From the IMG/VR virus record IMGVR_UViG_2541047795_000004: DNA of 44,950 nucleotides; one strand, 5' to 3'. Every line of letters begins with the position of its first letter. Positions within the stretch are counted from its first letter, which is position 1. Below the pieces are notes generated by a model, which worked only from the letters and a program-made list of their open reading frames with translations, was not told where the DNA came from and searched no databases. Positions 13,868 through 33,629 of this stretch are shown in pieces. This DNA is from a virus. Taxonomy: Duplodnaviria > Heunggongvirae > Uroviricota > Caudoviricetes. Made by a program: the position numbers and the translations under genes.

Positions 13868-14897
13868 CAGTAATAATCCTCGCAGTAGTAACAATAATTT
13901 GTTTTCGCCCATCATCTAAGTTTCTTATTTCTGGACGGTCATCTTCATTATAACTAATTACTACACTTTCTGCAGTTTCAATTTTTCGTCTTGGTGGTTT
14001 ATGAATGCCATCTGCTTTTATAGTAAAGGATTCGCCTTCAATACCAGCATTTTTTGTTTGAGTTTTGAATGTGTTGAGAATTGGTGATTTTTCATCTAAC
14101 GGCCCAAAAATGCTGGTCAATAACGGAGAAGCATCTTCAGGATTATATTCGAAATCAGCTCTGCTTAAAACTTCATATATTTTATTTACGCCGCTTTTTT
14201 GAATTGACTCTGGCAATAATTCTTTATGCCTTTTGAAGGTTATTTTCAGCGCATCAATAAGCTTATTGCAAAGTTCAATTTCAGAGTTGACTCTTTTAAC
14301 ATTTAAGAAGCCTTTAAAATATCCTGAAATATTGGTTCTTTTACTCCTGTCTTTTACAATAACTTTCCCGCCTTTCCCACTTGGATCAAGTTGAATTAAC
14401 GCTATTTTTTGCATTGCCTCAGCTTTTTTTACGAAAGTTTCATGAAATCTTTCTAAAGTAGGCATTTGTTCTTCAGATAACTTTTCGTCAAGAACATAAC
14501 GAACCACATCTTCATTATCGTATTTTATAATTGCATAGAATTTTTCCTTATCTGAAACCAATTCAAATAAGAAAAAGCATCCCATACTCGTGTTACCGCT
14601 AGAATGGTGTGACTGAAAATCACTGGCCAGTAGCTTCGATTGTTCTGTAAAACAATTAGCTTCAGCATCTGCTTTATCTCTAATGATACGCAGGATTCTT
14701 TCGGTATTTGAATTCTCCAGAAAAGTGAAAAGATTTCCTTTCAGTGAAGATTTGATACGTTCAAGAAAAAAATCCACATGCTGAACTGGTTTTATTTCTT
14801 TGAGAAGTGTCGGTGCTTCAAGATTCTTACCTACAACGTGAAAGATCATTTTATTAATGACTAAATTTTGTACGTCTTGTTCAGAAAGGAAACTCAT
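13839..14897 (-). CDS. Cassette gene A: uncharacterised 352-aa cytoplasmic protein, tentative weak resemblance to NA37/YejK-type nucleoid-associated proteins
   Basis: GGAG Shine-Dalgarno before the ATG at 14897; no transmembrane segment; the NA37 resemblance is by eye only and unverified. Confidence 0.7.
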   Translation of the reverse strand: MSFLSEQDVQNLVINKMIFHVVGKNLEAPTLLKEIKPVQHVDFFLERIKSSLKGNLFTFLENSNTERILRIIRDKADAEANCFTEQSKLLASDFQSHHSSGNTSMGCFFLFELVSDKEKFYAIIKYDNEDVVRYVLDEKLSEEQMPTLERFHETFVKKAEAMQKIALIQLDPSGKGGKVIVKDRSKRTNISGYFKGFLNVKRVNSEIELCNKLIDALKITFKRHKELLPESIQKSGVNKIYEVLSRADFEYNPEDASPLLTSIFGPLDEKSPILNTFKTQTKNAGIEGESFTIKADGIHKPPRRKIETAESVVISYNEDDRPEIRNLDDGRKQIIVTTARIITDDIDTSKNR

Positions 14898-15382: not shown

Positions 15383-15845
15383 GAGGACCGGCGGGGAGAA
15401 ATCCCCGCAACCTCTGATGTATTATGCATCCTCAACGCAGCCACAGTTAACCTGATTGGCGGGTTTATTTCATCTGTAAATATATTTATAAAAATAATGC
15501 CCACGCACAGCATAAAACAAAAAGTATTACAGATAAAAAAGGAACGTAATGTGCAGATTTGTTGTTTTCCATATTTACTCACCTTAATATGATTAACCCT
15601 GATAGGGTTGTTATTTCAGCGGTTTTCAAATGAGATATTATGGTGATCTGACAAATTTGCATAACATTAAAATTTAATTTGTTTAACCGCTTTTAATAAT
15701 AAGCGTTGTTTGTATCCCAGCAATCTGTTGTTTGGTTTTTATTCCATTAAGGTGGGGGCTTTACACTGGAGCCAGTTTATTTATACTTCATACGTCAGCC
15801 TGAACAACTGGCATCTGCTGCGCTGCGCCATCGAGAGATTGAGAA

Positions 15846-19734: not shown

Positions 19735-19871
19735 AATCTTAACTACAATATGATTCATTTTGATGATTGTTTCATAAGGAACAGTGAAGTAAGATCTAAG
19801 ATGAGTTAAATTTTATACAGTATAATCATAATATTGCAGCAAGGTGGTTATAATTGAAAGAATATTTAGAT

Positions 19872-21329
19872 ATGAATACATCTCATGTAAGAGTTGTTAC
19901 TCATATGTGTGGGTTCCTGGTTTGGCTCTATAGTCTTTCAATGTTGCCACCAATGGTTGTAGCATTGTTTTATAAAGAAAAAAGCCTGTTCGTTTTCTTT
20001 ATAACTTTCGTTATATTTTTTTGCATTGGTGGCGGAGCGTGGTATACAACTAAGAAATCTGGCATTCAATTACGTACCCGTGATGGGTTTATTATAATTG
20101 TAATGTTTTGGATTTTGTTTTCTGTTATTAGTGCATTCCCTTTATGGATTGACTCAGAACTTAATTTAACGTTCATTGATGCTCTGTTTGAAGGGGTTTC
20201 TGGAATAACAACAACAGGAGCAACTGTAATTGATGATGTTAGTTCATTACCTCGGGCATATTTGTACTATCGGTCACAGTTAAATTTTATAGGTGGTTTA
20301 GGAGTTATTGTTCTGGCGGTTGCTGTATTGCCATTATTGGGTATTGGTGGTGCAAAGCTTTATCAGTCAGAAATGCCGGGGCCATTTAAGGATGACAAAC
20401 TCACTCCCCGCCTGGCCGATACGTCACGGACACTGTGGATAACTTATTCTTTATTAGGTATTGCTTGTATTGTCTGTTATAGACTTGCAGGAATGCCTTT
20501 GTTTGATGCTATTTGTCACGGGATTTCCACAGTTTCGCTTGGTGGTTTCTCAACTCATAGCGAGAGTATCGGATATTTTAATAACTATTTGGTTGAGCTG
20601 GTGGCTGGTTCTTTTTCCCTGCTATCGGCTTTCAACTTCACTCTTTGGTATATTGTTATTAGCAGGAAAACGATAAAACCTTTAATCAGAGATATTGAAC
20701 TTCGTTTCTTTCTGTTAATAGCCTTAGGGGTGATCATTGTTACCTCTTTCCAGGTCTGGCATATAGGTATGTATGACTTGCATGGAAGTTTTATTCATTC
20801 GTTTTTTCTTGCCAGCTCCATGCTCACTGATAATGGTTTAGCTACGCAGGATTATGCAAACTGGCCCACGCACACGATAGTGTTTTTGCTGTTGTCAAGT
20901 TTCTTTGGGGGATGTATAGGTTCAACTTGTGGTGGAATTAAGTCACTTCGATTTCTTATACTTTTCAAACAAAGCAAACACGAGATAAATCAGCTTTCTC
21001 ATCCCAGAGCGTTGTTGAGTGTAAATGTAGGAGGGAAGATAGTTACAGATCGTGTAATGAGGTCTGTATGGAGTTTCTTTTTTCTTTATACTCTCTTCAC
21101 GGTGTTTTTTATACTGGTGTTAAATGGTATGGGATATGATTTTCTTACATCATTTGCAACAGTGGCTGCATGTATTAATAATATGGGATTAGGTTTTGGG
21201 GCTACTGCATCGTCATTCGGAGTGCTTAATGACATTGCAAAATATTTAATGTGCATAGCTATGATTCTTGGTCGCCTTGAAATTTATCCTGTTATTATAT
21301 TGTTTTCAGGTTTTTTTTGGCGCTCCTAA
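19872..21329 (+). CDS. trkG: TrkG potassium-uptake membrane protein (moron)
   Basis: 485-aa polytopic membrane protein from MNTSHVRVVTHMCGFLVWLYS, matching TrkG as recalled; AT-rich with AT-rich flanks. Confidence 0.9.
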   Translation: MNTSHVRVVTHMCGFLVWLYSLSMLPPMVVALFYKEKSLFVFFITFVIFFCIGGGAWYTTKKSGIQLRTRDGFIIIVMFWILFSVISAFPLWIDSELNLTFIDALFEGVSGITTTGATVIDDVSSLPRAYLYYRSQLNFIGGLGVIVLAVAVLPLLGIGGAKLYQSEMPGPFKDDKLTPRLADTSRTLWITYSLLGIACIVCYRLAGMPLFDAICHGISTVSLGGFSTHSESIGYFNNYLVELVAGSFSLLSAFNFTLWYIVISRKTIKPLIRDIELRFFLLIALGVIIVTSFQVWHIGMYDLHGSFIHSFFLASSMLTDNGLATQDYANWPTHTIVFLLLSSFFGGCIGSTCGGIKSLRFLILFKQSKHEINQLSHPRALLSVNVGGKIVTDRVMRSVWSFFFLYTLFTVFFILVLNGMGYDFLTSFATVAACINNMGLGFGATASSFGVLNDIAKYLMCIAMILGRLEIYPVIILFSGFFWRS

Positions 21330-21466
21330 TATATGGCTGATTTATAATTGTGAGTTTAATATTATATTGACTCACTCATTGATCCAATACCTAACTTTAC
21401 CAGCAACACCTCCGCCCCCAGTAGCACTGGCTGCTGGGGTGCGTTTTATTCATAAAGCAAGGCTGT

Positions 21467-22255
21467 ATGAGCGAGAAATTAAAGATAGTCTATCGCCCAT
21501 TACAAGAATTGTCACCGTATGCGCACAACGCCAGGACGCACAGTACTGAGCAGGTGGCACAACTGGTAGAAAGTATTAAGCAATTCGGCTGGACTAATCC
21601 GGTGCTGATTGACGAAAAGGGCGAAATTATTGCGGGTCACGGTCGTGTTATGGCGGCTGAAATGCTCAAAATGGATTCTGTTCCGGTCATTGTTCTGTCT
21701 GGCCTGACGGATGAGCAGAAAAAGGCGTACCGCCTGGCAGATAATCGCCTACCGATGAATGCTGGCTGGGATGAAGATCTATTGCGGATGGAGCTGTCGG
21801 ACCTAATCAATGCTGATTTTGATGTCTCCCTGACAGGCTTCGGCCCGACAGAAATTGATGAACTGTTGACGGATGTTTTGCCCGGTACAGGAAATAAGGA
21901 GGAGCCGTATACGACGAAAATTGATACGCCTGTTTATGAGCCGTCGGGCGGTAAACCGGATATCAGTGAACTGTACGACGATACGAAAACTCAGGAGCTG
22001 ATCAGCCGGATACGTTCGGCGTCCCTTGATCCTGATATTGAGAAATTCCTCCTGTGTGCGGCAGAACGTCACACGGTGTTTAATTTCAGCAGAATTGCGG
22101 ACTATTACGCTCATGCCCCCGCTGAAATTCAGTGCCTTTTCGAGGAGTCGGCGCTGGTGATCATTGATTATCAGCAGGCTATTGAAAATGGATTTGTCCG
22201 AATGACGCAGCGCATGGTGGCGATCATGCATAGCGGGGAGGAGGAATATGCGTGA
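21467..22255 (+). CDS. ynaK: ParB-like nuclease domain protein (full-length YnaK-like)
   Basis: N-terminal ParB/Srx-like motif (GHGRVMAA..., PVLIDEKGEIIAG); lies just upstream of the terminase genes. Confidence 0.7.
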   Translation: MSEKLKIVYRPLQELSPYAHNARTHSTEQVAQLVESIKQFGWTNPVLIDEKGEIIAGHGRVMAAEMLKMDSVPVIVLSGLTDEQKKAYRLADNRLPMNAGWDEDLLRMELSDLINADFDVSLTGFGPTEIDELLTDVLPGTGNKEEPYTTKIDTPVYEPSGGKPDISELYDDTKTQELISRIRSASLDPDIEKFLLCAAERHTVFNFSRIADYYAHAPAEIQCLFEESALVIIDYQQAIENGFVRMTQRMVAIMHSGEEEYA

Positions 22256-23180
22256 TGATTTTTGCGCCTTTATTCTGACTCACGGGCGACCGGACAAAGT
22301 TCTGACTTACCGGACGTTGCGTCGTGCTGGCTATACCGGGAAAATTTTTATCGTTGTTGATGATGAAGATAAGACACGGCATCAGTACATGGCTGAATTT
22401 GGTGAACAGGTGCTGGTATTTTCCAAAGCCGATATTGCCAGTCGTTTTGACGAAGCCGATAATTTTGGTGACCGCCGCTCAATTTTTTACGCCCGTAATG
22501 CCTGTTTCGACCTGGCAAAACTGGTCGGGTGTAAATACTTCATTCAGCTCGATGATGATTATCACGAGTTCCAGTTTCGGGTGGATCGCAACTATGACCA
22601 GGCCTATTTCCCGATAAGGAAACTGGATGCGATCCTTTCTGAAATGCTGGCGTATTACGAATCAATACCCGCGCTTTCCATCGCTATGTCGCAGGGCGGG
22701 GATTTTCTTGGTGACAATGGCGGCCATGCTTCGTGGGTGAAACGCAAGGCAATGAACAGCTTTATCTGTTCGGTTGATCGACCGTTCTCATTCATGGGGC
22801 GCATTAACGAGGATGTGAATACGTACACGAATCTCGGTCGCTGTGGTGAATTGTTTATGACGATCGGTGCTGTCCAGTTAGGGCAGAAACAGACGCAGAA
22901 AAACAGCGGCGGAATGACCGAGCTGTATCTGGATTCCGGAACCTACGTTAAAAGTTTTTACTCCGTCATGTATGCGCCGTCGTGCGTAAAAATCTCACTG
23001 ATGGGTGCCAGCCATAAACGCATTCACCATCAGGTCACCTGGAACAACGCTGCAGTAAAAATCCTTCACGAAAAATACAGGAAGAAGACACCCTGCATAT
23101 CAATGGGGGTGACAAATGATTCCGTATTCGAAAGTCGAGTCTCTGGCAGCGTGCCGGATGACTGCACAACAAATCGCTGA
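22248..23180 (+). CDS. Putative GT-A-fold glycosyltransferase-like protein, 310 aa
   Basis: N-terminal KIFIVVDDEDK and downstream FIQLDDDYHEF (DxD-like) motifs; overlaps the ParB-like stop by 8 nt. Fold assignment is by motif only. Confidence 0.5.
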   Translation: MRDDFCAFILTHGRPDKVLTYRTLRRAGYTGKIFIVVDDEDKTRHQYMAEFGEQVLVFSKADIASRFDEADNFGDRRSIFYARNACFDLAKLVGCKYFIQLDDDYHEFQFRVDRNYDQAYFPIRKLDAILSEMLAYYESIPALSIAMSQGGDFLGDNGGHASWVKRKAMNSFICSVDRPFSFMGRINEDVNTYTNLGRCGELFMTIGAVQLGQKQTQKNSGGMTELYLDSGTYVKSFYSVMYAPSCVKISLMGASHKRIHHQVTWNNAAVKILHEKYRKKTPCISMGVTNDSVFESRVSGSVPDDCTTNR

Positions 23181-23367
23181 CGTTCTGGATGTTGATCTGA
23201 ACCGACTGAAAGAAAATCGGGAAGCAATGACAGATTTTTATGCGGCCATCCGTAAGGGCAGAGCGAAAGGTGAAGCCGAGTTACGAGCGGCATTGTTTAA
23301 GCTTGCCAGAAAAGGGGATGCCTTTGCTCTGCGCGAACTACTCAGGGTGGATAAAAATCAGGACTAA
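23116..23367 (+). CDS. Small HTH-like protein (start uncertain; possibly ATG at 23158)
   Basis: 83-aa ORF overlapping the 3' end of the previous gene; helix-rich, basic; weak ribosome-binding site. Confidence 0.35.
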   Translation: MIPYSKVESLAACRMTAQQIADVLDVDLNRLKENREAMTDFYAAIRKGRAKGEAELRAALFKLARKGDAFALRELLRVDKNQD

Positions 23368-23370
23368 CTG

Positions 23371-24465
23371 ATGAGCAGACCGGACTGGGGGGCGTTGCAG
23401 CAGGAGTATATTGCTGAATACACCCGCTCCGGTATATCTCCGGTGGCATGGTGTGAAGCAAGGGGACTGAACTACGCAACAGCCCGTCGTTACATCAAAA
23501 AAACTCCGAAAAATGCGCAGAAAGAAATGCGCAAAACTGCGCAAAAAAGTGCGCGAAAAAAAACTGCGCAGACTGCGCAAAGGCAGAACGGAAAATCTCA
23601 GAAAAAAAAGGCTGTATCCGATGCACTCCTGATTGAGGGGGACACGGAAGAAATTTCGTTCTGCCCCGATGAATTCGGTATTTCTGACCAGCAGGCAAAA
23701 TTCGCCATGTTGGTTGCTCAGGGGAAAAAGCCGACAGAGGCATACCGACTGGCTGGTTATGAGGGGCAAGGTGCGACAGCTAACAGCAACGCCAGCCGTA
23801 TGCTTAGAAATGCCAGGGTTTATCGTGCTATCAGCTACTTCCGCAATCAGTACCAGAAACGCTATACCGCAGACCTGGATTTACTGGTGAGCCAGTTGAT
23901 GGCCATTGTCCAGGCCGACCCCAATCAGTTGGCACAATTTCGCCGTGTTAACTGCCGTTATTGCTGGGGCGAGAATCATCTCTACCAGTGGCGTGATATT
24001 GCAGAATTCGATAAGGCTGCGGCACAGGCCTCCAGAGATGGTAAACCCGAGCCGGAATATGGAGGCCTCGGCTTTGTTGATAACGCCATACCCAATCCGG
24101 ATTGCCCGAAGTGCTGCGGTGAGGGAACGGGACAGCTTTATATGGCTGATACCACACTGCTTGATGGGGATGCGCGGCAATTATATGCAGGGTCAAAGCT
24201 CGGAAAATACGGTGTTGAGATCCTGCTGGAGGATAAGGCTGCCGCCCGGCGTGAATTGTTGCGTTTGCTTTCTGCTGGCGGGGCATTATGTGCAGATAAA
24301 CGGCTACAGGAACTGGAAATTGAACGGCGCAGAATAGAAAACCAGAAGCTGCGCAAAGAGATCGAAACGGTGGAGGATAATGAACATCCCCAGCCTGTGG
24401 CGATCAATATTAATGTGGTTGATGCCAGATTAAGGAGTGATGAAGATGATCTCTCCGACGCTTAA
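23371..24465 (+). CDS. Terminase small subunit, 364 aa (HTH plus Terminase_2-like core plus Cys-rich C-terminal region)
   Basis: Core FCPDEFGISDQQAKFAMLVAQGKKPTEAYRLAGYEGQGATANSNASRMLRNARV resembles small-terminase domains; directly upstream of the large subunit. Confidence 0.75.
   Translation: MSRPDWGALQQEYIAEYTRSGISPVAWCEARGLNYATARRYIKKTPKNAQKEMRKTAQKSARKKTAQTAQRQNGKSQKKKAVSDALLIEGDTEEISFCPDEFGISDQQAKFAMLVAQGKKPTEAYRLAGYEGQGATANSNASRMLRNARVYRAISYFRNQYQKRYTADLDLLVSQLMAIVQADPNQLAQFRRVNCRYCWGENHLYQWRDIAEFDKAAAQASRDGKPEPEYGGLGFVDNAIPNPDCPKCCGEGTGQLYMADTTLLDGDARQLYAGSKLGKYGVEILLEDKAAARRELLRLLSAGGALCADKRLQELEIERRRIENQKLRKEIETVEDNEHPQPVAININVVDARLRSDEDDLSDA
23514..23579. repeat. Cluster of six TGCGCA/TGCGCG motifs at 9-15 bp spacing inside the small-terminase gene
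   Basis: Motif copies start at 23514, 23528, 23538, 23550, 23565 and 23574; the region encodes a basic KTAQ-rich linker. Confidence 0.4.
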
Positions 24466-25747
24466 TGTGCCTCAGGCGCGATTTCTTTCAATGCCCCATA
24501 AATTTAAAGCCTATATTGCTGGTTTTGGCTCGGGCAAAACATGGGTTGGGTGTGGCGGCATATGCAAGGGGATTTGGGAGCATCCAGGTATAAATCAGGG
24601 ATATTTTGCGCCAACGTATCCCCAAATTCGCGATATTTTTTACCCTACAGTGGAAGAAGTTGCTGCTGACTGGGGATTGAACGTAAAAATTAATGAGGGA
24701 AATAAAGAGGTTCACTTTTATTACGGACGCCAGTATCGGGGAACCACTATCTGCAGATCGATGGAGAAGCCACAAACGATCGTCGGTTTCAAAATTGGTA
24801 ATGCGCTGGTGGATGAACTGGATATTTTGCCGAAGGAAAAAGCCAGAACGGCGTGGCGCAAGATAATTGCGCGTATGCGTTATAAGATTGATGGACTTCG
24901 CAACGGTATTGACGTTACAACCACGCCGGAAGGATTCAAATTTGTCTACGAGCAGTTTGTTAAAGCCGTGCGTGAAAAAACAGAGCTGGCCTCACTGTAT
25001 GGTCTGGTGCAGGCATCTACTTTCGATAATGAAAAGAACCTGCCAGCAGATTACATTCCTTTACTTCTTGAATCATACCCTCCAGGGTTGATTAAAGCCT
25101 ATCTTCTAGGACGGTTTACTAACCTGACAAGTGGTACTGTTTACCATCAGTTTGACCGGAAACTGAATAATTGCGAAGAAGTGGAGCAGCCAGGGGAGCC
25201 GATTTATATTGGGATGGATTTTAACGTTGGAAAGATGGCGGGAATCGTCCATGTGCTGCGTTTGGGGCTTCCATGTGCGGTAACTGAAATCATCAATGCC
25301 TACGATACGCCGGATATGATCCGCCTCATTAAAGAACGCTTCTGGCCGTATGACGGGCATGATTACCGGAAAGTGAGGGAGATTTATATTTATCCAGATG
25401 CTTCCGGAGATTCCAGAAAATCAAGTAACGCAAGTACGACGGATATAGCCCAGCTTAAGCAGGCAGGTTTTAACGTTGTGGTGAACAGCTCGAACCCGCC
25501 AGTAAAAGATCGCGTTAACTCAATGAATGCAATGTTCTGCAATGCCAATGGTGAGCGTCGCTATAAAGTTAATGTGAAGCGTTGTCCGGTATATGCCGAA
25601 TCTCTGGAGCAACAGGTCTGGGATGATAAGGGGGAGCCTGATAAAAAATCTGGCAATGATCACCCGAATGATGCCGGAGGTTATTTCATCGTTAAGCAAT
25701 TCCCTATTGTCAAACCGACCGGAAGAGTCACATCACTTCGGATTTAA
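24446..25747 (+). CDS. Terminase large subunit
   Basis: Walker A-like AGFGSGKTW near the N-terminus; AAGGAG Shine-Dalgarno 8 nt before the ATG at 24446 (ORF opens at a GTG at 24437). Confidence 0.85.
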   Translation: MISPTLNVPQARFLSMPHKFKAYIAGFGSGKTWVGCGGICKGIWEHPGINQGYFAPTYPQIRDIFYPTVEEVAADWGLNVKINEGNKEVHFYYGRQYRGTTICRSMEKPQTIVGFKIGNALVDELDILPKEKARTAWRKIIARMRYKIDGLRNGIDVTTTPEGFKFVYEQFVKAVREKTELASLYGLVQASTFDNEKNLPADYIPLLLESYPPGLIKAYLLGRFTNLTSGTVYHQFDRKLNNCEEVEQPGEPIYIGMDFNVGKMAGIVHVLRLGLPCAVTEIINAYDTPDMIRLIKERFWPYDGHDYRKVREIYIYPDASGDSRKSSNASTTDIAQLKQAGFNVVVNSSNPPVKDRVNSMNAMFCNANGERRYKVNVKRCPVYAESLEQQVWDDKGEPDKKSGNDHPNDAGGYFIVKQFPIVKPTGRVTSLRI

Positions 25748-25749
25748 TT

Positions 25750-27156
25750 ATGGCTGATATATCAACACCCAACCTCGACTATAACGATATGCTGGAGGCG
25801 TGGGATATTAACGACGCATTGATGGGCGGTACGCTTGAAATGCGCAGGCAGGGGGAAAATTATCTCCCCAAATGGCCTAATGAAGATGAAGACGCTTATA
25901 AAAAACGCCTGTCTGTGGCTACGCTACTTCCTGTGTATGAAGAAAGCATCAAACAAAATATTGGGCGCATATTTGCAGAGCCGACAGTATTGAGTGAGGA
26001 AACGCCGGAAAAAATCAGGGAATATGCAGAAAATATCGACATGGAGGGGAGCCGACTGGATGTGTGGGCGCAGCAATTTTTCAGTCTCGCATTTCAGTAT
26101 GGTGTGGCACATGCGCTGGTGGACTATCCACGAACGGATATGAACGAGATTCGGACAAAAGCCGATGAAAACGCGGCCGGTGGTCGCCCGTACGTTACGA
26201 TGCTGAATCCACGCCAGGTTATTGGATGGAAATCGAAAGTTGAAAAAGGGAAAGTTGTTCTCACTGATTTGCGTATAAAAGAGGTCATCATTATTGATGG
26301 TGATGATTTCGGGCAGAAGAAGGTGGAGCAGATCCGCCATATTATGCCCCGTCGAGTAGAAATTTATCGACGCAGCGAAGGTACTAATGGCGAATCTGTC
26401 TGGATGCTTCATGAGTCATGGAATACCAGCCGTGATGATATTCCTCTGGTAACACTGTATACGAAGAAAACAGGGTTTATGCGTGGTACACCGCCATTGC
26501 TTAATCTTGGCTTGCTGAATATCAAGCACTGGCAAAGCCAGAGCGAGCAGGACAATATTCTTCATGTTGCCCGCGTTCCATTGCTGGTGGCCTACGGGCT
26601 GGACAGGAATGAAGAACTGACGGTTGGTGCATCCACCGCTACGATTTTTGAGGACAGAACAAAAAATGGCCTCGAATATGTTGAACATAGTGGCGCAGCG
26701 ATAGAATCTGGCGAAACATCACTTGAGAAGCTGGAAAATCAGATGCGTCATGCCGGCGCTAAACTTCTGCGGGCTGAAAATACATCCACCAAATCTGTTG
26801 ATCAGACTAATGAAGAGCGGATGCAGGAACACTCGCCGCTTTATACAATGGCGAACTCCCTCGAAGATGCCCTCGATAATATTCTCCAGATAATGGCGGA
26901 ATGGAGCGGAGAGAGTTGCGGTGGCAATGTGGATGTGCGCACTGAACTGGATGTATCTGCCCAGGTGTTTGACTCATCCTCCGCGCTGGCTGTTCAGTCA
27001 TTGCGTCAGGGCGGTGATATACGTCAGATTGATGCGGTTCGGGTGTTGCAGGCGTTGAAATTTATCGATCAGGATTCCCGTCCAGAGGAAGTGATCGATG
27101 AATTAAAAAATCAGAGTGTAATGCTGATGGAAATCAATGATGCAAACCGTGAATGA
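25750..27156 (+). CDS. Portal protein
   Basis: 468-aa ORF immediately after the large terminase; size and position. Confidence 0.7.
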   Translation: MADISTPNLDYNDMLEAWDINDALMGGTLEMRRQGENYLPKWPNEDEDAYKKRLSVATLLPVYEESIKQNIGRIFAEPTVLSEETPEKIREYAENIDMEGSRLDVWAQQFFSLAFQYGVAHALVDYPRTDMNEIRTKADENAAGGRPYVTMLNPRQVIGWKSKVEKGKVVLTDLRIKEVIIIDGDDFGQKKVEQIRHIMPRRVEIYRRSEGTNGESVWMLHESWNTSRDDIPLVTLYTKKTGFMRGTPPLLNLGLLNIKHWQSQSEQDNILHVARVPLLVAYGLDRNEELTVGASTATIFEDRTKNGLEYVEHSGAAIESGETSLEKLENQMRHAGAKLLRAENTSTKSVDQTNEERMQEHSPLYTMANSLEDALDNILQIMAEWSGESCGGNVDVRTELDVSAQVFDSSSALAVQSLRQGGDIRQIDAVRVLQALKFIDQDSRPEEVIDELKNQSVMLMEINDANRE

Positions 27157-28252
27157 ACGGCTGCGTGATGAATCAATTGCTCATGCAGTCTGGATATCCC
27201 GCTATAGCACTGGTGTGGCTGCCAGAATGGTGAAAATACTGAATGACAGCGATGCGGAGCTTACAGCTCGCCTGCTGGTAGCACTGGACAGCCTCGATCC
27301 TGGTAGTTTTACCGTTACGCGCCTGGAGTCACTTCTGGCGAGTGTCAGAGAGGTTAACCGCGCTGCTATTAACAGCATGTTTACCAGTCTCTCCGGAGAG
27401 CTGAACGAGCTGGCAATTTATGAGGCTGGTTATCAGTTAAGTCTGTTTGATTCTCTGCTACCTGATTTTGTTGCTGATGTTCACCCTCTGGTTGGTATAT
27501 CTTCTGATGCACTTTACGCCGCTGCAATGGCGCGACCATTCCAGGGACGACTGCTCAGTGAGTGGGCCTTGGATCTTGAGGCGGATCGGCTCAGACGCAT
27601 AACAAATACGGTGCGTCAGGGTTTTTTGCTGGGGGATACCAATGAGCAGATCGCAAGAAAAATTCGGGGACATGTCAGCAAGGGATTTCAGGATGGTGCA
27701 TTGCAGATGAGCCGGGCTAATGCGGCCAGCATTGCAAAAACAGCGGTTGGACATCTTGCTGCTACTGCCCGTGAGAGTTTTGCCAGCGCGAATAATGATT
27801 TGATTAAGGGTAAGCAATGGTTATCAACGCTTGATAATCGTACTACGCCACAATGTCGAATCAGGGATCGCCTCAAATATACGCTGGATAATAAACCTGT
27901 AGGTCACAGTGTGCCTTATTTGCATGGGCCGGGAAAAATTCATTTCTGCTGCCGCTCAACGGAAACGTTCATTCTGAAATCAGCGAAGGAACTGGGTATT
28001 GATGTTCGTGATATTTCCCCGGCTGAGCGGGCCAGCATGGATGGCGTGGTGGCCGGAGATACAACCTACAGGGAATGGTTTTTGCGTCAGCCTTACACCA
28101 GACAAAAACAGATTGTGGGGGAAACCCGGGCAAAGCTGATTCGGGATGGCGGTATGTCGCCAGATGAATTTTACACCGATAAAGGCGAATGGCTGACGCT
28201 GAAGCAACTCCGTGAGCGTGATGCACAGGTATTCAGAAAAGCAGGGATTTAA
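27137..28252 (+). CDS. Head morphogenesis protein (minor head protein)
   Basis: 371-aa ORF after the portal gene, overlapping its end; terminator follows. Confidence 0.65.
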   Translation: MMQTVNERLRDESIAHAVWISRYSTGVAARMVKILNDSDAELTARLLVALDSLDPGSFTVTRLESLLASVREVNRAAINSMFTSLSGELNELAIYEAGYQLSLFDSLLPDFVADVHPLVGISSDALYAAAMARPFQGRLLSEWALDLEADRLRRITNTVRQGFLLGDTNEQIARKIRGHVSKGFQDGALQMSRANAASIAKTAVGHLAATARESFASANNDLIKGKQWLSTLDNRTTPQCRIRDRLKYTLDNKPVGHSVPYLHGPGKIHFCCRSTETFILKSAKELGIDVRDISPAERASMDGVVAGDTTYREWFLRQPYTRQKQIVGETRAKLIRDGGMSPDEFYTDKGEWLTLKQLRERDAQVFRKAGI

Positions 28253-28272
28253 ATAAATCATTTATTACAACA

Positions 28273-28298
28273 GGCTACCTTCGGGTGGCCTTTTTTAT
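28273..28298 (+). terminator. Intrinsic terminator/attenuator after the head morphogenesis gene
   Basis: Hairpin GGCTACC-TTCG-GGTGGCC (one G-U pair) followed by T6. Confidence 0.45.
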
Positions 28299-28356
28299 TG
28301 CTGCGATCCGGATGGTGAGCAGCGTAACTGTCGGAAGACTTAAACCAGGTACTAAT

Positions 28357-29121
28357 ATGAAACTGAAAACGGTCGAGATTAACGGAAAACAATACGCAGA
28401 AATCGATACTGCTGGCCTGCCAGTTTATGTGCACGACGATGGTAAAGAAATCGGCTTCGATGCACCGCTGGCGATAAAAAAAATTACAGAGCTTAATGGC
28501 GAGGCAAAAAATCATCGCCTGGCTAAAGAAGCTGCAGAGGAAAAACTGGCTAAGTTTGCCGCTATCGAAGACCCGAAGAAGGCGATCGAGGCACTGGAAA
28601 TGCTGTCAAAAATCGACCAGAAAAAGCTGATCGATGCGGGACAGGTTGACCAGGTTAAGGCAGAAATTACGAAAAATTTTCAGCAGCAATTAGATGAAGA
28701 AAAGCAACGCTCTCAGATGCTGGAGACGCAGCTTTACGATTCTATGATTGGCGGTAGTTTTGCGGGTTCAAAATATATTGCCGATAAAATTGCGATCCCG
28801 GCAGATTTATTACAAGCCCGCTTCGGGCAGGCATTCAAAGTGGAAGAAGGGAAGATCGTTGCTTATGACGCTTCCGGCAACAAAATTTATTCCCGCGCGA
28901 AGCCTGGCGAACTGGCGCAGTTTGATGAGGCGCTGGAGTTCCTCGTCGAAAATTACCCTCAGAAAGACTACATCCTGAAAGCCAGTGGCAACAATGGCGG
29001 CGGCTCCCGTCCGACACAGCATGATGTTGGTCAGAAAACGATGAAACGCTCTGCTTTTGATGCACTGGATGTTGCAGGTAAGCAAAACGCATTGAAAGAC
29101 GGTATCACAATTGTTGATTAA
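28357..29121 (+). CDS. Putative scaffolding protein, 254 aa
   Basis: Helix-rich, charged protein directly upstream of the major capsid gene; start set at ATG 28357 downstream of the terminator. Confidence 0.5.
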   Translation: MKLKTVEINGKQYAEIDTAGLPVYVHDDGKEIGFDAPLAIKKITELNGEAKNHRLAKEAAEEKLAKFAAIEDPKKAIEALEMLSKIDQKKLIDAGQVDQVKAEITKNFQQQLDEEKQRSQMLETQLYDSMIGGSFAGSKYIADKIAIPADLLQARFGQAFKVEEGKIVAYDASGNKIYSRAKPGELAQFDEALEFLVENYPQKDYILKASGNNGGGSRPTQHDVGQKTMKRSAFDALDVAGKQNALKDGITIVD

Positions 29122-29219
29122 CACATTTGTCAGCTTCCGGATGGGAGCTGGTGTCAGGGCTGGATAGCTCATTACTCCATCTATTCACAATTACGCAAAT
29201 TTTTAAGGAATATTTAATT

Positions 29220-30359
29220 ATGGCTGGAAATACCCTGACCGGGTTGATCCCGACTATTTATACCGCCCTGGATATTGTATCCCGTGAGCAGGTAGGTTTT
29301 ATCCCTGCGGTAGCTAAAAACGCAAAAGCTGACGCCGCAGCAAAAGATCAGACGGTAACCGCGCCAGTTGCGCCTGAGGCGAAAACCGAAGATATCGTAC
29401 CGGGGCCGTCAGCTCCGAATACCGGTGATCAAAATATTGGCACTGTTGATGTGAAAATTACTAAATCCAAAATGGCACCGGTTAAATGGAATGGTGAAGA
29501 ACAACTGGCTCTTGGCCCTTCAGGGACTTACAACACCATTCTGGCTGATCAGTTCAAGCAGGCTTTTCGCGCCCTTGCAAACGAGGTTGAGGCTGATCTT
29601 GGTGCGTTGTATTTCGGTGCTTCCCGCGCCGTGGGAACCGCAGGGACAACGCCGTTTGGTGTTAAAGATGATCTTTCTGATGCTGCTCTGGCTCGTCAGG
29701 TTCTGGAGGATAACGGCGCACCGACAACCGATCTGCAGATGGTGCTTGGCTCCACTGCCATTGCTAATTTGCGCGGAAAACAGTCTGTACTGTTTAAAGT
29801 GAATGAATCCGGCACTGAACAGCTACTGCGTGAGGGCGTGTTGGGGCGTCTGGAGGGATTCAATATTCACAGTTCGGCAGGTGTAAAACGAGCGCCAAAG
29901 GTTGCTGCAACTGGTTATCTCGTGAATGGCGAGAAAAAAGAAGGCGATGTTCTTATTTCCATTGATACTGGTTCGGGGAGTATTTCTGCAGGTCAGATTG
30001 TTACGTTCGCTGGCGATCCGAATCAGTATGTTGTGGCAGCAGCGACCAGCAATCTGATTACTCTTGCAGCGCCCGGACTGCGTCAGGATCTGGCCGATGA
30101 TACTGCAATCACAGTTGTTGGCTCCTTTACTGCAAATATGGCGTTTGATCGCAACGCGTTTCTGCTGGCATCCCGTACTCCGGCAATGCCGGAAGGTGGC
30201 GATAATGCTGATGATGTAATGAATGTTACGGACCCGATTTCAGGGATTACGTTCCAGATTGCACTGTATCGTCAGTATCGCCAGGTGCGCTATGAAGTTG
30301 GACTGGCATGGGGTGTTTCATCAGTGAAGCCGGCACATGGTTGTCTGATTCTTGGTTAA
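29220..30359 (+). CDS. Major capsid protein, 379 aa
   Basis: Position between scaffold and head-tail genes; ATG at 29220 with an AAGGAA ribosome-binding site; strong terminator immediately downstream. Confidence 0.7.
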   Translation: MAGNTLTGLIPTIYTALDIVSREQVGFIPAVAKNAKADAAAKDQTVTAPVAPEAKTEDIVPGPSAPNTGDQNIGTVDVKITKSKMAPVKWNGEEQLALGPSGTYNTILADQFKQAFRALANEVEADLGALYFGASRAVGTAGTTPFGVKDDLSDAALARQVLEDNGAPTTDLQMVLGSTAIANLRGKQSVLFKVNESGTEQLLREGVLGRLEGFNIHSSAGVKRAPKVAATGYLVNGEKKEGDVLISIDTGSGSISAGQIVTFAGDPNQYVVAAATSNLITLAAPGLRQDLADDTAITVVGSFTANMAFDRNAFLLASRTPAMPEGGDNADDVMNVTDPISGITFQIALYRQYRQVRYEVGLAWGVSSVKPAHGCLILG

Positions 30360-30369
30360 ACATTCAAAC

Positions 30370-30390
30370 GGGGCTTCGGCCCCATTTTTA
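30370..30390 (+). terminator. Intrinsic terminator after the major capsid gene
   Basis: Hairpin GGGGC-TTCG-GCCCC followed by a T-rich run. Confidence 0.5.
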
Positions 30391-30401
30391 ATGGGGGGCA
30401 T

Positions 30402-30578
30402 ATGGCCGGATTAACTAAAGAGCAAAGAGCACAGCGTGAAGCCGCACAAAAAACGCAAATTGAGTTAGTGGTTATGGTGACCGATTATCAGATGTTTCCC
30501 GGCGCACCAACTATCGCTAATGTTCATCCTGATGAAGTTGACAACTGGAAGGCTATGGGCTGGAAAACTCAGGAGTAA
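30402..30578 (+). CDS. Small hypothetical protein, 58 aa (hand-translated)
   Basis: ORF MAGLTKEQRAQREAAQKTQIELVVMVTDYQMFPGAPTIANVHPDEVDNWKAMGWKTQE fills the gap between the capsid terminator and the next gene. Confidence 0.35.
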   Translation: MAGLTKEQRAQREAAQKTQIELVVMVTDYQMFPGAPTIANVHPDEVDNWKAMGWKTQE

Positions 30579-30581
30579 CAC

Positions 30582-30977
30582 ATGATCACTTACGTGACCT
30601 GTGATGACGTTGATAATGCGTTTGGGAACGCCTGGACGAGTGAGAACGCTAAAAATAAAGCTGTTTTAATGGCTAATGCCTGGCTTAATGGCTTCAACCT
30701 GAAAATTAACCCATCCCGTATTCCGGAAGAGGTAAAACTTGCGGGAGCATATGCAGCCAGAATTGCCTCATTCGGTAAGTTGTTTCAGCAGAAAAATGAT
30801 TCTGGCGTTGTTATCAGTAAAGCCGTGTCGGCTGACGGGGTCAGTGTATCGAAATCATTTTCTGAGTTGCCAGCAAACAGCACTGCATTGCTTGAACCCG
30901 ATTTACAGCTTGCGATAGCACTGCTGAAACCGTACGGACTTAGTCGCTCACAAGTCAGGGTTGTGAGGGGGGGATAA
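30582..30977 (+). CDS. Head-tail connector / head completion protein (hypothetical)
   Basis: Position and size in the head-tail joining block; tightly packed with neighbours. Confidence 0.45.
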   Translation: MITYVTCDDVDNAFGNAWTSENAKNKAVLMANAWLNGFNLKINPSRIPEEVKLAGAYAARIASFGKLFQQKNDSGVVISKAVSADGVSVSKSFSELPANSTALLEPDLQLAIALLKPYGLSRSQVRVVRGG

Positions 30978-31360
30978 TGGGGCTTCGTGAAGAGATTCAG
31001 TCAGAGGTTGCCGCTGCTTTTGATGAGGATTTAGCGGACGCCGTGAGTGATTTTTCTGGTTCTTACGTTACGCACCGGCACTGGGATCCTGTGACGGAAA
31101 CTGGCGGCGAATCCACCGAAATCTATACCGGGCGAGGCGTGTTGACACGTTATAAGCTGGGCAGAATTGATGGGATTAATATTTTGCATGGTGACCTTAA
31201 ATTAACCGCTCTGGTATGCGAGGTTACGGATAAACCAGCTGTCGACCATATTATTGAGATTTATGATCCTGTATCAAGGCAGTTACAACGATACGAGGTA
31301 ATTACAGCAAGTGTAGATCCTTCCGCATCAGTTTACTCTATCCAGTTAAGGAGAGCGTAA
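30977..31360 (+). CDS. Head-tail joining protein (hypothetical)
   Basis: Position and size; ATGA overlap with the previous gene. Confidence 0.45.
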   Translation: MGLREEIQSEVAAAFDEDLADAVSDFSGSYVTHRHWDPVTETGGESTEIYTGRGVLTRYKLGRIDGINILHGDLKLTALVCEVTDKPAVDHIIEIYDPVSRQLQRYEVITASVDPSASVYSIQLRRA

Positions 31361-31741
31361 ATGGCAAAGGCATGGGATATAGAACCGTCAATATTTGCCG
31401 GGATGATTGAGGAAGATGTAGGGCTGAAGATTCGCTACATCGCTATTCAGATTCTTACTGCTATTGATATTGCTGCTCCGGTTGATACCGGACGTTTCAG
31501 AAATAACAACCTGGTGTCGTTACAGCATCCCGATTTTGGTATATCTGATAACGTGGATCCGAACGGTACGATTGCTGTTCAGCGTGGGATCGGGGTTATT
31601 TCGAAAGCTGCAAATTACGGAGTTATTTATATCCAGAATAACCTTCCTTATGCAGAGGCTCTTGAAAACGGTCATTCACAACAAGCGCCAACTGGCGTGT
31701 ATGCCAACGCTTTTCATGGTGTTTTACAGGCTTACAAATGA
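31361..31741 (+). CDS. Neck/tail completion protein (HK97 gp10-like, tentative)
   Basis: Position and size. Confidence 0.45.
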   Translation: MAKAWDIEPSIFAGMIEEDVGLKIRYIAIQILTAIDIAAPVDTGRFRNNNLVSLQHPDFGISDNVDPNGTIAVQRGIGVISKAANYGVIYIQNNLPYAEALENGHSQQAPTGVYANAFHGVLQAYK

Positions 31742-32130
31742 CGTTTACTGAAATCAGAAATACGGTTATTTCCAGAATGACGGCACAGACGATTATTGAT
31801 GGAAAAGACGTATTGTATCCGAACGCGCCAACGTTCGATCCTTCCGGTAAGTTAATCTGGGCGCGGTTAAGTAATATTCCCGGGCAGGCTGGAGTTAATG
31901 AAATTGGCGCGGGGCCGATTGTTTATCGCACGGGGATAATCATTATTCAGTTATTTGTCCCCGCAGGTTCTGGTTCAAAACTCATTACTGAGACAGCCGA
32001 TAAATTGCGGGAACTGTTTGAGTTTCAGGATGACGATCGTCTCAGTTACCAGGCTGTTTCCTCAATAGCCGTTGGCGAAAAGAATGGCTGGTTCCAGCTT
32101 AATCTTCAAATTCCATATCGCGCGCTCTAG
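31738..32130 (+). CDS. Tail terminator-like protein (tentative)
   Basis: Position immediately upstream of the major tail protein gene. Confidence 0.45.
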   Translation: MTFTEIRNTVISRMTAQTIIDGKDVLYPNAPTFDPSGKLIWARLSNIPGQAGVNEIGAGPIVYRTGIIIIQLFVPAGSGSKLITETADKLRELFEFQDDDRLSYQAVSSIAVGEKNGWFQLNLQIPYRAL

Positions 32131-32156
32131 CGCAATTAATGACATAGGAGGCTCCT

Positions 32157-33119
32157 GTGAGTTCAGGTGCAAAGGTTATCTCGGCATTTATCCGGGAGAC
32201 GGTTGCAGGCACTACGCCAGCAAGTGGTGACTGGAGTTTATTAAAACGCACAAGCTGGGGAGTAAAACCCACCCAGAATAAAGGCGAAAATAATGAGATT
32301 GGTGGCTCCCGGATGGCTCAGGGGGCGACGCCTGGCACTGTGGATGTCGGCGGTGATGTTGGTACCAAATTTCGCTGGGGTCAACATGATGATTTTCTTG
32401 CATCCTGTTTCGGCGCGGAATGGTCAGGCGATTCTCTGACAATGGGGAATGAGCGAATAACATTTTCTCTGGCGACCTATGCGTCCGATGTCGGAATTGC
32501 CTCTGTCGTCAGAGGAGCGCAGGTTGGCTCATGGAAAATGCAGATCCCTAACGACGGCGATATTACAGCGACCGTAACCTTTGCCGGACTGGACTGGGAA
32601 TCAAAGGCCGATGATACGAATTTTATCAAAGGCGAACCTGTGGATAGTGCAGGAAAGCTACGTTATTCGTTTAAGGAGGTTTCAGCAGTAAGCCTGAATG
32701 GTGTTGCCGGAGGTAACGGTTTTTGTATCGACAGTTTTGATATTCAGTTCGATAACAAACTCCAGACACAGCGTTGTATCGGGACTGGCTCGCCTTATGC
32801 AGGAGCAAATATTCCGACTACTTTTACACCGTCCGGTACGGTGACGCTTTCATGGTCTAAAGCCGCGTGGGAAATCTGGAGTAAAACACTGACTGGAGAA
32901 ACAGTTCCGTTCAGCTTCACGCTTTCGAATGGAGAGGGGGCATACACTTTCAGTTTCCCGAAGGTTCAGGTGTCAGGTGAATGGCCTGATGGGGGTAATA
33001 GCGACATTATCCAGGTTCAATTGAGCATTACCGCAGCAGATGAAGCACCTACGATAACCAGAAAAAAAAATTCCCCGGCTGCCGTGATCGCAAAAGCCAG
33101 TGCTGAGGCGATTAGTTGA
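32157..33119 (+). CDS. Major tail (tube) protein with a C-terminal Ig-like region; GTG start
   Basis: AGGAGG Shine-Dalgarno before the GTG at 32157; precedes the chaperone gene pair; A9 tract near the 3' end (33062-33070). Confidence 0.7.
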   Translation: MSSGAKVISAFIRETVAGTTPASGDWSLLKRTSWGVKPTQNKGENNEIGGSRMAQGATPGTVDVGGDVGTKFRWGQHDDFLASCFGAEWSGDSLTMGNERITFSLATYASDVGIASVVRGAQVGSWKMQIPNDGDITATVTFAGLDWESKADDTNFIKGEPVDSAGKLRYSFKEVSAVSLNGVAGGNGFCIDSFDIQFDNKLQTQRCIGTGSPYAGANIPTTFTPSGTVTLSWSKAAWEIWSKTLTGETVPFSFTLSNGEGAYTFSFPKVQVSGEWPDGGNSDIIQVQLSITAADEAPTITRKKNSPAAVIAKASAEAIS

Positions 33120-33167
33120 TTTTCCGTTATTCCTCCTGTGGTACTGCCCTACAGGGGGACGCATTGA

Positions 33168-33629
33168 ATGAGGTTATGGATGTTTATTCTTAATCAGAAA
33201 ATTATCATTGGTGGAGAACGCTGGTTTACGCCAATGAAGGACTTAAAACCTGTAGACGGGTTAAAACTGTTGGTGGCAAGCAGCGATAACGATCAGTATC
33301 GCTCCCGTAATGCATTAATCCGTCGCCACATTGAGAAAATGGATGCCAGTTTGCACGTCGGAACGAAGGAGTTTGATATTTCAAAGGTTTCCGAGGTGGA
33401 TTCTGTTGATGATTTACTCATTGATAATGCCGCTCGTTATCTGCTGAAAGACTGGAAAGGGGTTGGTGAACTGGTTAATGGTGTTGAGGTTGCACTGGAA
33501 TATACGGCAGAACGAGGGATCGCGCTGCTTAAGCAGAATCCAGAGTTGTACTGGCAGATCCTTGCAGAAGCAGCCAGCATCGCCCAGGGTAAAGAGCAGC
33601 AGAAGCAGGATACGATAAAAAAGCCATAG
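33168..33629 (+). CDS. Tail assembly chaperone (lambda G analogue)
   Basis: Position between the major tail and tape-measure genes; ends TIKKP* directly over the slippery heptamer. Confidence 0.65.
   Translation: MRLWMFILNQKIIIGGERWFTPMKDLKPVDGLKLLVASSDNDQYRSRNALIRRHIEKMDASLHVGTKEFDISKVSEVDSVDDLLIDNAARYLLKDWKGVGELVNGVEVALEYTAERGIALLKQNPELYWQILAEAASIAQGKEQQKQDTIKKP

Follow-up and report, generated by a model that had tools for sequence, protein, structure and literature searches.

The stretch analyzed here, one strand of 44,950 nucleotides (nt) from the IMG/VR virus record IMGVR_UViG_2541047795_000004 (the window; all positions are in whole-window numbering), is a complete Rac-type lambdoid prophage of E. 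coli of about 45 kb, with intR, recET, kilR, a Q-like antiterminator, lysis genes, trkG and head and tail genes. Upstream of its terminase genes lie two overlapping open reading frames (ORFs), of which ORF1 encodes an acidic ParB-like protein and ORF2 a putative glycosyltransferase (GT) of the TAGT family, and we find that the C-terminal domain of the first accompanies the second in every locus with upstream sequence that we sampled across bacteria and archaea. An initial annotation of the window, made from the letters alone, had described the two ORFs and their overlap, the motifs IVVDD and QLDDD in ORF2, a further small ORF and the terminase downstream, and all of these are present at the positions given (Table 1). 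The tested 2.1 kb of the locus is 100% identical in several complete genomes. Because ORF1 and ORF2 both match PHROG families and have thousands of homologs each, they are real genes and not chance ORFs. The overlap amounts to 8 nt, such that the ATG of ORF2 lies inside the last codons of ORF1, preceded by the strong ribosome-binding site GGGGAGGAGG.

Table 1. Features of the locus in window coordinates.
Feature	Start	End	Strand	Description
ORF1	21467	22255	+	262 amino acids (aa), ATG start, AAGG 6 nt upstream; ParB-like acidic partner; full-length form of K-12 ynaK
ORF1 residues 1-135	21467	21871	+	predicted ParB/Srx fold binding nucleoside triphosphates (NTP), then helix-helix segment
ORF1 residues 147-160	21905	21946	+	PYTTKIDTPVYEPS; conserved motif within predicted disordered linker
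ORF1 residues 168-255	21968	22231	+	predicted helical C-terminal domain, then acidic tail
Coupling junction	22235	22255	+	Shine-Dalgarno GGGGAGGAGG 22235-22244; ORF2 ATG 22248-22250; ORF1 TGA 22253-22255
ORF2	22248	23180	+	310 aa; TAGT-family (PF20691) nucleotide-sugar glycosyltransferase with predicted GT-A fold; WP_001204032.1
ORF2 residues 281-310 and stop codon	23088	23180	+	predicted disordered C-terminal extension; overlaps ORF3
ORF3	23116	23367	+	83 aa (or 69 aa from 23158); small basic helical protein; terminase-small-subunit-related
terS	23371	24465	+	terminase small subunit; downstream context
terL	24437	25747	+	terminase large subunit; downstream context
Terminator-like hairpin	21416	21439	+	10-bp stem, 7 G-C pairs, T-rich tail; consensus scan only

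ORF2 matches the Pfam family PF20691, TAGT ('TET-associated glycosyltransferase'), at 121.6 bits (cut-off 27.5; 5.5e-35), with residues 8-222 covering positions 4-205 of the 205 in the profile. It also matches PHROG 842, which bears the name beta-glucosyl-HMC-alpha-glucosyltransferase, at 9e-104, and is called 'GREB1-related protein' in RefSeq (WP_001204032.1). Its relatives form 1330 clusters at 50% identity (E <= 1e-3), 497 of them at E <= 1e-30. A sequence search against PDB chains returned noise only (E >= 1.2). The AlphaFold2 (AF2) model is confident, with a predicted local distance difference test score (pLDDT) of 91.2 and a predicted template modeling score (pTM) of 0.86; it has a GT-A fold, and the viral models nearest to it all belong to TAGT-family proteins.

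In an alignment of 112 ORF2 homologs with 40-82% identity (A1), R83, K167, N187, D189, R258 and H260 are invariant, and D41, D102, D103, D104, Y105 and Y193 are each at least 90% conserved; E188 is the consensus residue in A1 and reaches at least 90% in a 25-sequence alignment (A4). The first of the two acidic motifs, IFIVVDDEDK, comprises D38, D39, E40 and D41, and the second, FIQLDDDYHE, contains D102-D104 (nt 22551-22559). The predicted active-site residues, R83, D102-D103-D104 and E188-D189, match the signature R...DDD...EDY/F that was defined for experimentally validated DNA-modifying phage GT-A enzymes (bioRxiv 10.1101/2023.12.21.572611). The C-terminal region on the acceptor side of the GT shows extreme conservation in bacteria and archaea alike, and residues 281-310, disordered in the model, are part of an extension of about 20-30 aa that is missing from most homologs (about 285-290 aa). 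From sequence and model, ORF2 is predicted to be a GT-A-fold glycosyltransferase of the TAGT family with an intact active site. The GT-A fold proposed in the initial annotation was thus borne out with respect to both family and motif, in that the profile search led to a GT family and the DxD-like residues are conserved.

ORF1 matches PHROG 620 at 3e-90 and is strongly acidic, with an isoelectric point (pI) of 4.6 and a net charge of about -21. A ParB/Srx NTP-binding fold is predicted for residues 7 to about 95, weakly by Pfam ParB_N (PF02195; 29.3 bits against a cut-off of 26.3; 8.8e-7) and also by PDB structures, among them Spo0J (residues 7-93, 1.8e-5), where ParB, Spo0J and Noc match by their N-domains only. 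The ParB-like part of the initial label 'ParB-like nuclease' hence holds. Its second half does not, since no nuclease family was matched in Pfam, PHROG and NCBIfam-type searches, and 'nuclease' is best read as a historical label for what is predicted to be a ParB NTP-binding fold. ORF1 stays below the full-length ParB model TIGR00180 (38.1 bits versus 58.45, residues 11-94 only); no helix-turn-helix (HTH) DNA-binding domain was found, with PDB matches ending at about residue 93, and none of the 60 features annotated in the prophage is a ParA. Box II reads GHGR, not GERR, with G57 and R60 invariant and H58 and G59 at least 90% conserved; D92 and N93 of box III are invariant, and the box I arginine is not conserved. 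The closest relatives of the N-domain are ParB domains fused to DNA methyltransferases (PHROG 498, 3.7e-51; PADLOC MTase_II, 1e-38).

The AF2 model of ORF1 shows strands and helices over residues 8-92 and helices over 103-134, with a pLDDT of about 88 over the N-terminal part. It is followed by a linker (136-167) with pLDDT below 50 and a helical region (166-255), the linker and C-domain together ranging from 30 to 79. For the C-domain, the low confidence would fit folding as a dimer or upon contact with the partner protein. Within the linker lies the motif P-Y-T-x-K-I-x-T-P-x-Y-E-P (Y..P.Y in short), of which Y148, P155 and Y157 are invariant across 70 diverse partner sequences from bacteria, archaea and viruses of both. 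The C-domain itself is helical, comprises about 90 aa with the pattern 'FLLxAAERHTVFNF...ALVIIDY..AI.NGF' and ends in the acidic tail. Its profile gave no credible match in Pfam or PDB, and it appears to be a previously undescribed domain. Designed armadillo repeats, adhesin A and Phage_Gene47 were rejected as homologs of the C-domain, their scores being sub-threshold (E 0.003-0.03), and by inspection the Y..P.Y motif does not resemble a beta-clamp-binding motif (QL[SD]LF) or a PIP box.

The central observation concerns the pairing of the two genes. Our first scans of viral contigs gave nearly only near-identical E. coli prophages, and they were replaced by species-dereplicated genomes and a search seeded with a distant member. 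Upstream sequence is available for 77 of 80 loci, sampled at species level from many phyla of bacteria and from some archaea, and in all 77 a hidden Markov model (HMM) of the ORF1 C-domain found its target upstream of the TAGT gene on the same strand. In 74 of them the partner lies within 2-77 nt of the TAGT gene, and in the other three a second TAGT gene is inserted. In the reciprocal direction, all 80 viral loci retrieved with the C-domain profile have a TAGT gene on the same strand. Co-occurrence across phages, raised in the initial annotation as a check, thus holds both ways, with the linked part of ORF1 being its C-domain and not its ParB domain. Adjacent partner and TAGT genes overlap in 133 of 141 pairs, most commonly by 11 nt (70 pairs) or 8 nt (35 pairs, as here), and the two proteins co-diverge (mirror-tree r = 0.41, Mantel p <= 0.001). 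Their charges are complementary, the TAGT clade being basic (median pI 8.7) and the partner family acidic (median pI 4.5), which we likewise count in favor of the pairing. A tblastn search found ORF2 relatives with 27-47% identity in cultured phages of Lactobacillus, Nocardia, Porphyromonas and Vibrio as well as in the archaeal virus HHTV-2, and the order of ParB-like gene, overlapping TAGT gene, terminase and portal is kept in phi jlb1, c5, NTR1, HHTV-2 and the Porphyromonas phage, with about 3 kb of small genes between TAGT and terminase in HHTV-2.

The ParB domain of the partner is not always there. Among the genome loci, 7 of 77 have a partner consisting of the motif and C-domain only (about 75-185 aa; the unfused form, as opposed to the form fused to a ParB domain). 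Among the viral loci, whose sampling is biased by the choice of seed, 55 of 80 have this short form. The nearest TAGT neighbors usually have the same partner architecture (88%), but the fused and unfused groups are not deeply separated, which implies that the ParB domain was gained or lost repeatedly. The ParB N-domain is therefore dispensable, and the invariant partner of the TAGT clade is the C-domain together with the Y..P.Y motif. In the one T4-like homolog that was tested, the TAGT protein of Aeromonas phage Aeh1, no partner domain was found. Long TAGT representatives were considered as candidate ParB-TAGT fusions and rejected, their extra domains being methyltransferase, sulfotransferase, P-loop kinase-like or second TAGT domains. 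Some loci (L226, at 3460-3798 and 4597-5001, L221, L233, L253 and L279) carry two partner-domain genes or tandem TAGT paralogs in the order partner, TAGT-a, TAGT-b, which suggests the stepwise construction of di- or oligosaccharides.

The surroundings of the pair were characterized by Pfam scans of 260 neighboring proteins in 160 related loci, from which the best 25 families per scan were listed. With the fused form, the first large downstream gene encodes a large terminase in at least 51 of 59 cases. These terminases belong to four unrelated Pfam types, Terminase_6 (27), Terminase_3 (17), lambda GpA (5) and TerL_ATPase (2), and the linkage therefore is to the packaging position rather than to one terminase lineage. 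Upstream of the fused form the neighbors vary widely, the most frequent family accounting for at most 3 of 142 proteins. The unfused form is found next to DNA_pol3_beta (16, typically as the overlapping downstream gene), DNA_pol_A (8), DnaB and a second TAGT gene (8), and in the Vibrio phage pv27 a helicase gene follows the pair. Both contexts, packaging and replication, are centered on DNA.

Variant loci add a series of enzymes. The TAGT domain is fused in some of them to a class-I methyltransferase, Sulfotransfer_2, a P-loop kinase-like domain or a second TAGT domain, and neighboring or inserted genes encode radical SAM, GT-B, CofD-like and NTP-transferase proteins, a histidine phosphatase with a cytidylyltransferase, an epimerase and a GDP-mannose dehydratase. 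The fusion variants retain the upstream ParB-like gene, and the variant with the P-loop kinase also has the terminase downstream, while the contig of the sulfotransferase variant ends early. Such accessory genes and fusions (second GT, O-methyltransferase-type, sulfotransferase, P-loop kinase, radical SAM, cytidylyltransferase and epimerase) are of the kind found in DNA sugar-hypermodification clusters. In viral contigs, genes are inserted between partner and TAGT at L266 (2845-5282), L268 (3083-5474) and L312 (1398-2384), encoding in some cases a CofD-like phospho-transferase with a MobA/IspD-like nucleotidyltransferase and in others a fusion of histidine phosphatase and cytidylyltransferase; these inserts hint at phospho-linked decorations on a glycosylated target, comparable to teichoic-acid or coenzyme-F420 chemistry. 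A radical-SAM gene lies directly upstream of the ParB-like gene in L245 (80-1042), where the TAGT protein has an N-terminal P-loop kinase-like domain, and between partner and TAGT in L251.

Returning to the prophage itself, the small ORF that the initial annotation had grouped with the pair does exist, though it belongs elsewhere. ORF3 matches PHROG 309 (terminase small subunit; 8.3e-23, profile positions 145-218 of 319) and has no match in Pfam, NCBIfam or PADLOC, the last of which also returned no defence-system model for ORF2; by its sequence ORF3 is predicted to be part of the packaging module and not of the GT pair. It shares 65 nt with the 3' end of ORF2, read in a different frame, and its start is ambiguous, with an ATG at 23116 preceded by the Shine-Dalgarno-like sequence GGGGGTGA and the RefSeq start at 23158. 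On the other side, the potassium-transporter gene trkG (19854-21329) is a cargo gene inserted between the lysis genes and the ParB-like gene. The strong terminator-like hairpin at 21416-21439 sits between trkG and ORF1 and is predicted to mark the end of the trkG insert, with the phage late operon resuming after it. Among the late functions of the phage, the GT pair comes first after this insert. Further upstream, downstream of the antiterminator gene, the RefSeq annotation alone places genes for tRNA-Ile and tRNA-Arg at about 15576-15825 (14277-14526 in the numbering of locus L001).

The 2.1-kb region is matched in 1610 of 5426 complete E. coli genomes, with at least 80% coverage in 867, or about one in six. 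For the Rac prophage of K-12, the initial annotation stated that only fragments of these genes remain, which is only partly right, in that the first 85 or so codons of ORF1 persist as ynaK and the GT gene is wholly lost. K-12 Rac aligns with the window up to 21720 and resumes at 33278, so that an 11.6-kb deletion (window 21721-33277) joins ORF1, at about codon 85 (junction at about 1425630 in NC_000913.3), to the region just upstream of ydaY. What is retained is an 87-aa YnaK stub; the GT, terminase, portal, head and proximal tail genes are gone. In the RefSeq annotation of L001, a genome with 100% identity to the window at this locus and with an intact 262-aa ORF, the Prokaryotic Genome Annotation Pipeline (PGAP) calls ynaK an 'incomplete, missing C-terminus' pseudogene of 258 nt (L001 20168-20425, equal to window 21467-21724). 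This call seems to be modeled on the truncated 87-aa YnaK of K-12, and intact copies seem to be systematically under-called in some RefSeq genomes. Many E. coli proteins follow ORF1 up to about residue 165 (P0195-P0238), or ORF2 up to about residues 232-255 (P0007, P0023, P0033 and P0040-P0045), at about 99% identity and then continue into unrelated domains, among them Ail/Lom, NlpC/P60, tail-fibre assembly and the terminase C-terminus. This pattern suggests recurrent independent deletions or recombination events with an endpoint inside the module, as in K-12, although assembly or gene-calling artefacts are possible.

As to what the pair might do, we give slightly less than even chances to the proposal that ORF1 and ORF2 form a late-expressed, two-protein module for DNA-directed glycosylation, analogous to the ParB-activated phage thymine dioxygenases. 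The two genes would be translationally coupled and expressed together with the late (packaging) genes of the phage. ORF2 would be an active, metal-dependent nucleotide-sugar GT-A catalyst and ORF1 its obligate partner, in a physical interaction, which we infer, where the C-domain and the Y..P.Y linker motif engage the basic GT and bind or activate it. The ParB-type NTP-binding fold, a DNA clamp, would hold or activate the GT on double-stranded phage DNA that is readied for packaging, and in the unfused form the neighboring beta sliding clamp and polymerase would couple the reaction to replication. The resulting sugar mark could then protect or label progeny DNA against host nucleases and in this way provide an anti-restriction benefit. 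We favor DNA as the target because the enzymes of T2 and T6 and the 5mYOX-linked TAGT-type enzymes act on DNA-borne acceptors, and a link to DNA is supported by the similarity of the N-domain to methyltransferase-fused ParBs, by the terminase and replisome neighbors, by the accessory enzymes of the variant loci and by the precedent of phage ParB176 (see below). Of the DNA or surface glycosylation considered in the initial annotation, a surface role is unlikely, and a role directed at DNA would be the favored alternative.

A number of points weigh against a DNA-directed module. The ParB domain, which is the chief argument for DNA, is dispensable, and the partner is very acidic with no predicted DNA-binding domain. 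The literature gave no report of glycosylated DNA from such phages, even though the module is present, at 80% coverage or more, in 867 of 5426 complete E. coli genomes. The TAGT domain of the animal protein GREB1 is reported to O-GlcNAcylate a protein, the estrogen receptor ER-alpha (PMC7968844). The main weakness, however, is a chemical one, in that no acceptor is available. Neither TET/5mYOX nor a hydroxymethylase for deoxyuridine monophosphate (dUMP) or deoxycytidine monophosphate (dCMP) was found in the 45-kb prophage by its annotation and a Pfam scan of its hypothetical proteins, an alpha-glucosyltransferase (alpha-GT) is likewise absent from both, and there is no TET/JBP, 5mYOX or thymidylate-synthase-like enzyme (ThyS) among the listed families (best 25 per scan) of the 260 neighbors. 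All DNA GTs characterized so far need a hydroxymethyl or sugar hydroxyl as acceptor, and E. coli is not known to make hydroxymethyl-pyrimidine DNA.

Since the prophage holds no source of 5-hydroxymethylcytosine (5hmC) or 5-hydroxymethyluracil (5hmU), the acceptor therefore should be something in ordinary DNA, or else a hydroxyl that is not in DNA. For this clade, which no TET/5mYOX or hydroxymethylase was found to accompany, the name 'TET-associated' is a misnomer. A more specific version of the proposal, which we regard as rather unlikely, is a post-replicative DNA glycosylation that does without a hydroxymethyl-pyrimidine precursor, in which a GT tethered to a ParB-type or beta clamp would transfer the sugar onto a group that ordinary DNA already offers, such as an exocyclic amine, a phosphate of the backbone or a terminal hydroxyl. 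If true, such precursor-free glycosylation would add a new chemical class to the known DNA modifications, one carried widely by temperate phages of both bacteria and archaea and, at 80% coverage or more, by about one in six complete E. coli genomes.

A hydroxyl outside of DNA leads to the strongest rival explanation, protein O-glycosylation, which we consider rather unlikely. In its most economical version, and comparable to glycogenin, which glycosylates itself, the GT would modify the Y148-T149...Y157 motif of its own partner; otherwise the partner could present to it a protein of packaging, of replication or of the host. The invariant Y..P.Y motif, in a predicted disordered and hence accessible linker, is the only universally co-conserved candidate acceptor, the extremely conserved acceptor-side region of the GT fits an acceptor that is inherited along with it, and both the lack of an acceptor-generating enzyme for DNA in the prophage and the activity reported for GREB1 agree with a protein target. 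Such a target, however, leaves the wiring to the ParB domain, terminase, sliding clamp and polymerase unexplained; the Thr/Ser at the second position of the motif is not invariant, a conserved motif in a disordered segment more often serves for binding than for modification, and most characterized relatives act on DNA-borne acceptors. That the acceptor is another nucleic acid or a nucleotide, such as a ribose 2'-OH, a modified tRNA base or an immune nucleotide signal, in which case the pair would serve an anti-defence function, seems to us distinctly improbable. GT-A enzymes that glycosylate queuosine in tRNA exist, the GT is basic, and P-loop kinase, cytidylyltransferase, CofD-like and radical-SAM accessories are present in variant loci, but there is no specific contextual link to tRNA or signaling genes, PADLOC holds no model for ORF2, and the terminase and replisome linkage points to genomic DNA.

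The classical chemistry of the family, a sugar placed on 5hmC, 5hmU or an existing DNA sugar, would also account for ORF2 if the acceptor enzyme came from another place, be it the host genome, a second prophage in the same cell or a remote gene of the phage. To this we assign only a slim chance. It has in its favor that this chemistry is established and that 5mYOX loci often hold GTs, ParBs and terminases; yet the entire Rac-type prophage is visible and encodes no acceptor enzyme, phages of only 31-38 kb also carry the pair, no 5mYOX or ThyS is among the families listed for the 260 neighbors, and hydroxymethyl-pyrimidine DNA is not known from E. coli. The Aeh1 TAGT protein moreover has no partner domain, such that hmC-type enzymes form a different clade. 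Finally, the two genes could be unrelated, with ORF1 a ParB-like nuclease or partition protein and ORF2 a GT for lysogenic conversion of the envelope, placed side by side by chance or in an accessory slot. The slot before the terminase does commonly gather accessory genes, trkG lies immediately upstream, and phage and RefSeq annotations call ORF1 a partition or ParB/Srx-domain protein. Against this stand the pairing in 77 of 77 and 80 of 80 loci with its conserved overlap, the spread of the pair over bacteria and archaea with completely different envelopes, the lack of an annotated Gtr-type membrane partner in the prophage, and the lack of an annotated ParA and of an HTH domain in ORF1. We therefore give this reading hardly any weight; the co-occurrence statistics and the spread of the pair over both archaea and bacteria leave practically no room for envelope conversion or for chance adjacency.

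The component families of the DNA-directed module that we prefer are known, whereas the TAGT-partner module as such appears to be new, as do its independence of TET and hydroxymethylases and its two alternative wirings; in the literature we found no functional study of the Rac-type pair under ynaK, GREB1-related, TAGT or ParB. Phage DNA glycosylation is a classic counter-defence, and its enzymes are also tools of molecular biology. The pair offers a concrete two-gene system for E. coli, with K-12 as a natural null background and many strains with an intact copy, and it bears on whether DNA can be glycosylated without a hydroxymethyl handle, on ParB-like proteins as activators of enzymes beyond dioxygenases and on the role of the Y..P.Y motif. 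It also allows several misleading names to be corrected, namely 'beta-glucosyl-HMC-alpha-glucosyltransferase', 'GREB1-related', 'partitioning protein' and ynaK as a pseudogene. 'Solitary' TAGTs of unexplained function were counted in 288 of 753 GT-encoding phage genomes (PMC13216743), and a second paper from 2023-2026 found that about 65% of GT contigs carry a GT-A gene without a hydroxymethylation pathway. A large share of such 'solitary' genes are not solitary at all, but part of an obligate pair with an undescribed domain, and this domain is connected in one form with a ParB NTP-binding fold next to the terminase and in the other with the replisome.

How does the pair compare with systems that are better known? 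PF20691 includes the T2/T6 beta-glucosyl-HMC-alpha-glucosyltransferase, which acts on a DNA-borne acceptor (PMC13216743) and shares its Pfam family and GT-A fold with ORF2. The T-even enzyme, however, extends alpha-glucosyl-5hmC that is provided by way of dCMP hydroxymethylase and alpha-GT, both of which the Rac-type prophage lacks. With ORF2 as query, tblastn did not retrieve T2 or T6 at E <= 1e-3, and T4-like Aeromonas phages showed only 23-25% identity. Because T2 and T6 were not retrieved and Aeh1 has no partner domain, the partner-dependent clade is distinct from the T-even enzymes, and the name of the latter on the Rac-type protein is an over-transferred annotation. The 5mYOX/TET-associated phage GT-A enzymes (Pyle et al. 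2023/2024) and the trypanosome base-J glucosyltransferase share the active-site signature R...DDD...EDY/F and the GT-A fold with ORF2, and the accessory enzymes of the variant TAGT-partner loci are similar to those of 5mYOX/TET-associated GT loci. GTs occur in 31%, ParBs in 27% and terminases in 19% of 5mYOX loci, and ParB-like and terminase neighbors had already been noted for 5mYOX-linked GT-A genes (bioRxiv 10.1101/2023.12.21.572611). But these GTs use 5hmC or 5hmU from an adjacent methyltransferase/5mYOX or ThyS, whereas the Rac-type clade has an obligate, non-enzymatic partner instead.

GREB1, a multidomain animal protein of 1949 aa with Zn-binding, permuted superfamily 2 (SF2) helicase-like and C-terminal GT parts, has a TAGT-type GT-A domain in common with ORF2, which is a single TAGT domain without the other GREB1 domains, and the name 'GREB1-related' hence says nothing on its substrate. 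With the ParB of ParABS segregation systems ORF1 shares the NTP-binding domain, but it lacks the HTH domain that binds parS, and no ParA is annotated. The ParB-DNA methyltransferase fusions (PHROG 498, PADLOC MTase_II; PMC12704722) come closer, since they likewise combine a ParB fold with an enzyme of the DNA-modifying type and are enriched in prophages. In them, however, the link is covalent, whereas ORF1 and ORF2 are separate polypeptides, the enzyme is a GT and the connection runs through a dedicated C-domain. A 2025 survey of the ParB-CTPase fold makes no mention of a GT partner or a terminase linkage.

The closest parallel is phage ParB176, a cognate-specific activator of the thymine dioxygenase 5mYOX176 that is needed specifically on double-stranded DNA (O'Toole et al., PNAS 2026, PMC13229309). 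There are differences, in that the NTP-binding domain of ParB176 is required (PMC13229309), while the ParB domain can be wholly absent from the ORF1 family, and in that the enzyme beside ORF1 is a GT-A glycosyltransferase and not a dioxygenase, of which the Rac-type prophage has none. The likeness lies in architecture and wiring. ParB176 consists of an NTP-binding domain, a helix-helix segment, an unstructured linker and a C-terminal domain, without a DNA-binding domain (PMC13229309), and the same arrangement is predicted for ORF1. In both cases, a ParB-like gene adjoins that of an enzyme of the DNA-modification type, often in the vicinity of the terminase genes (PMC13229309).

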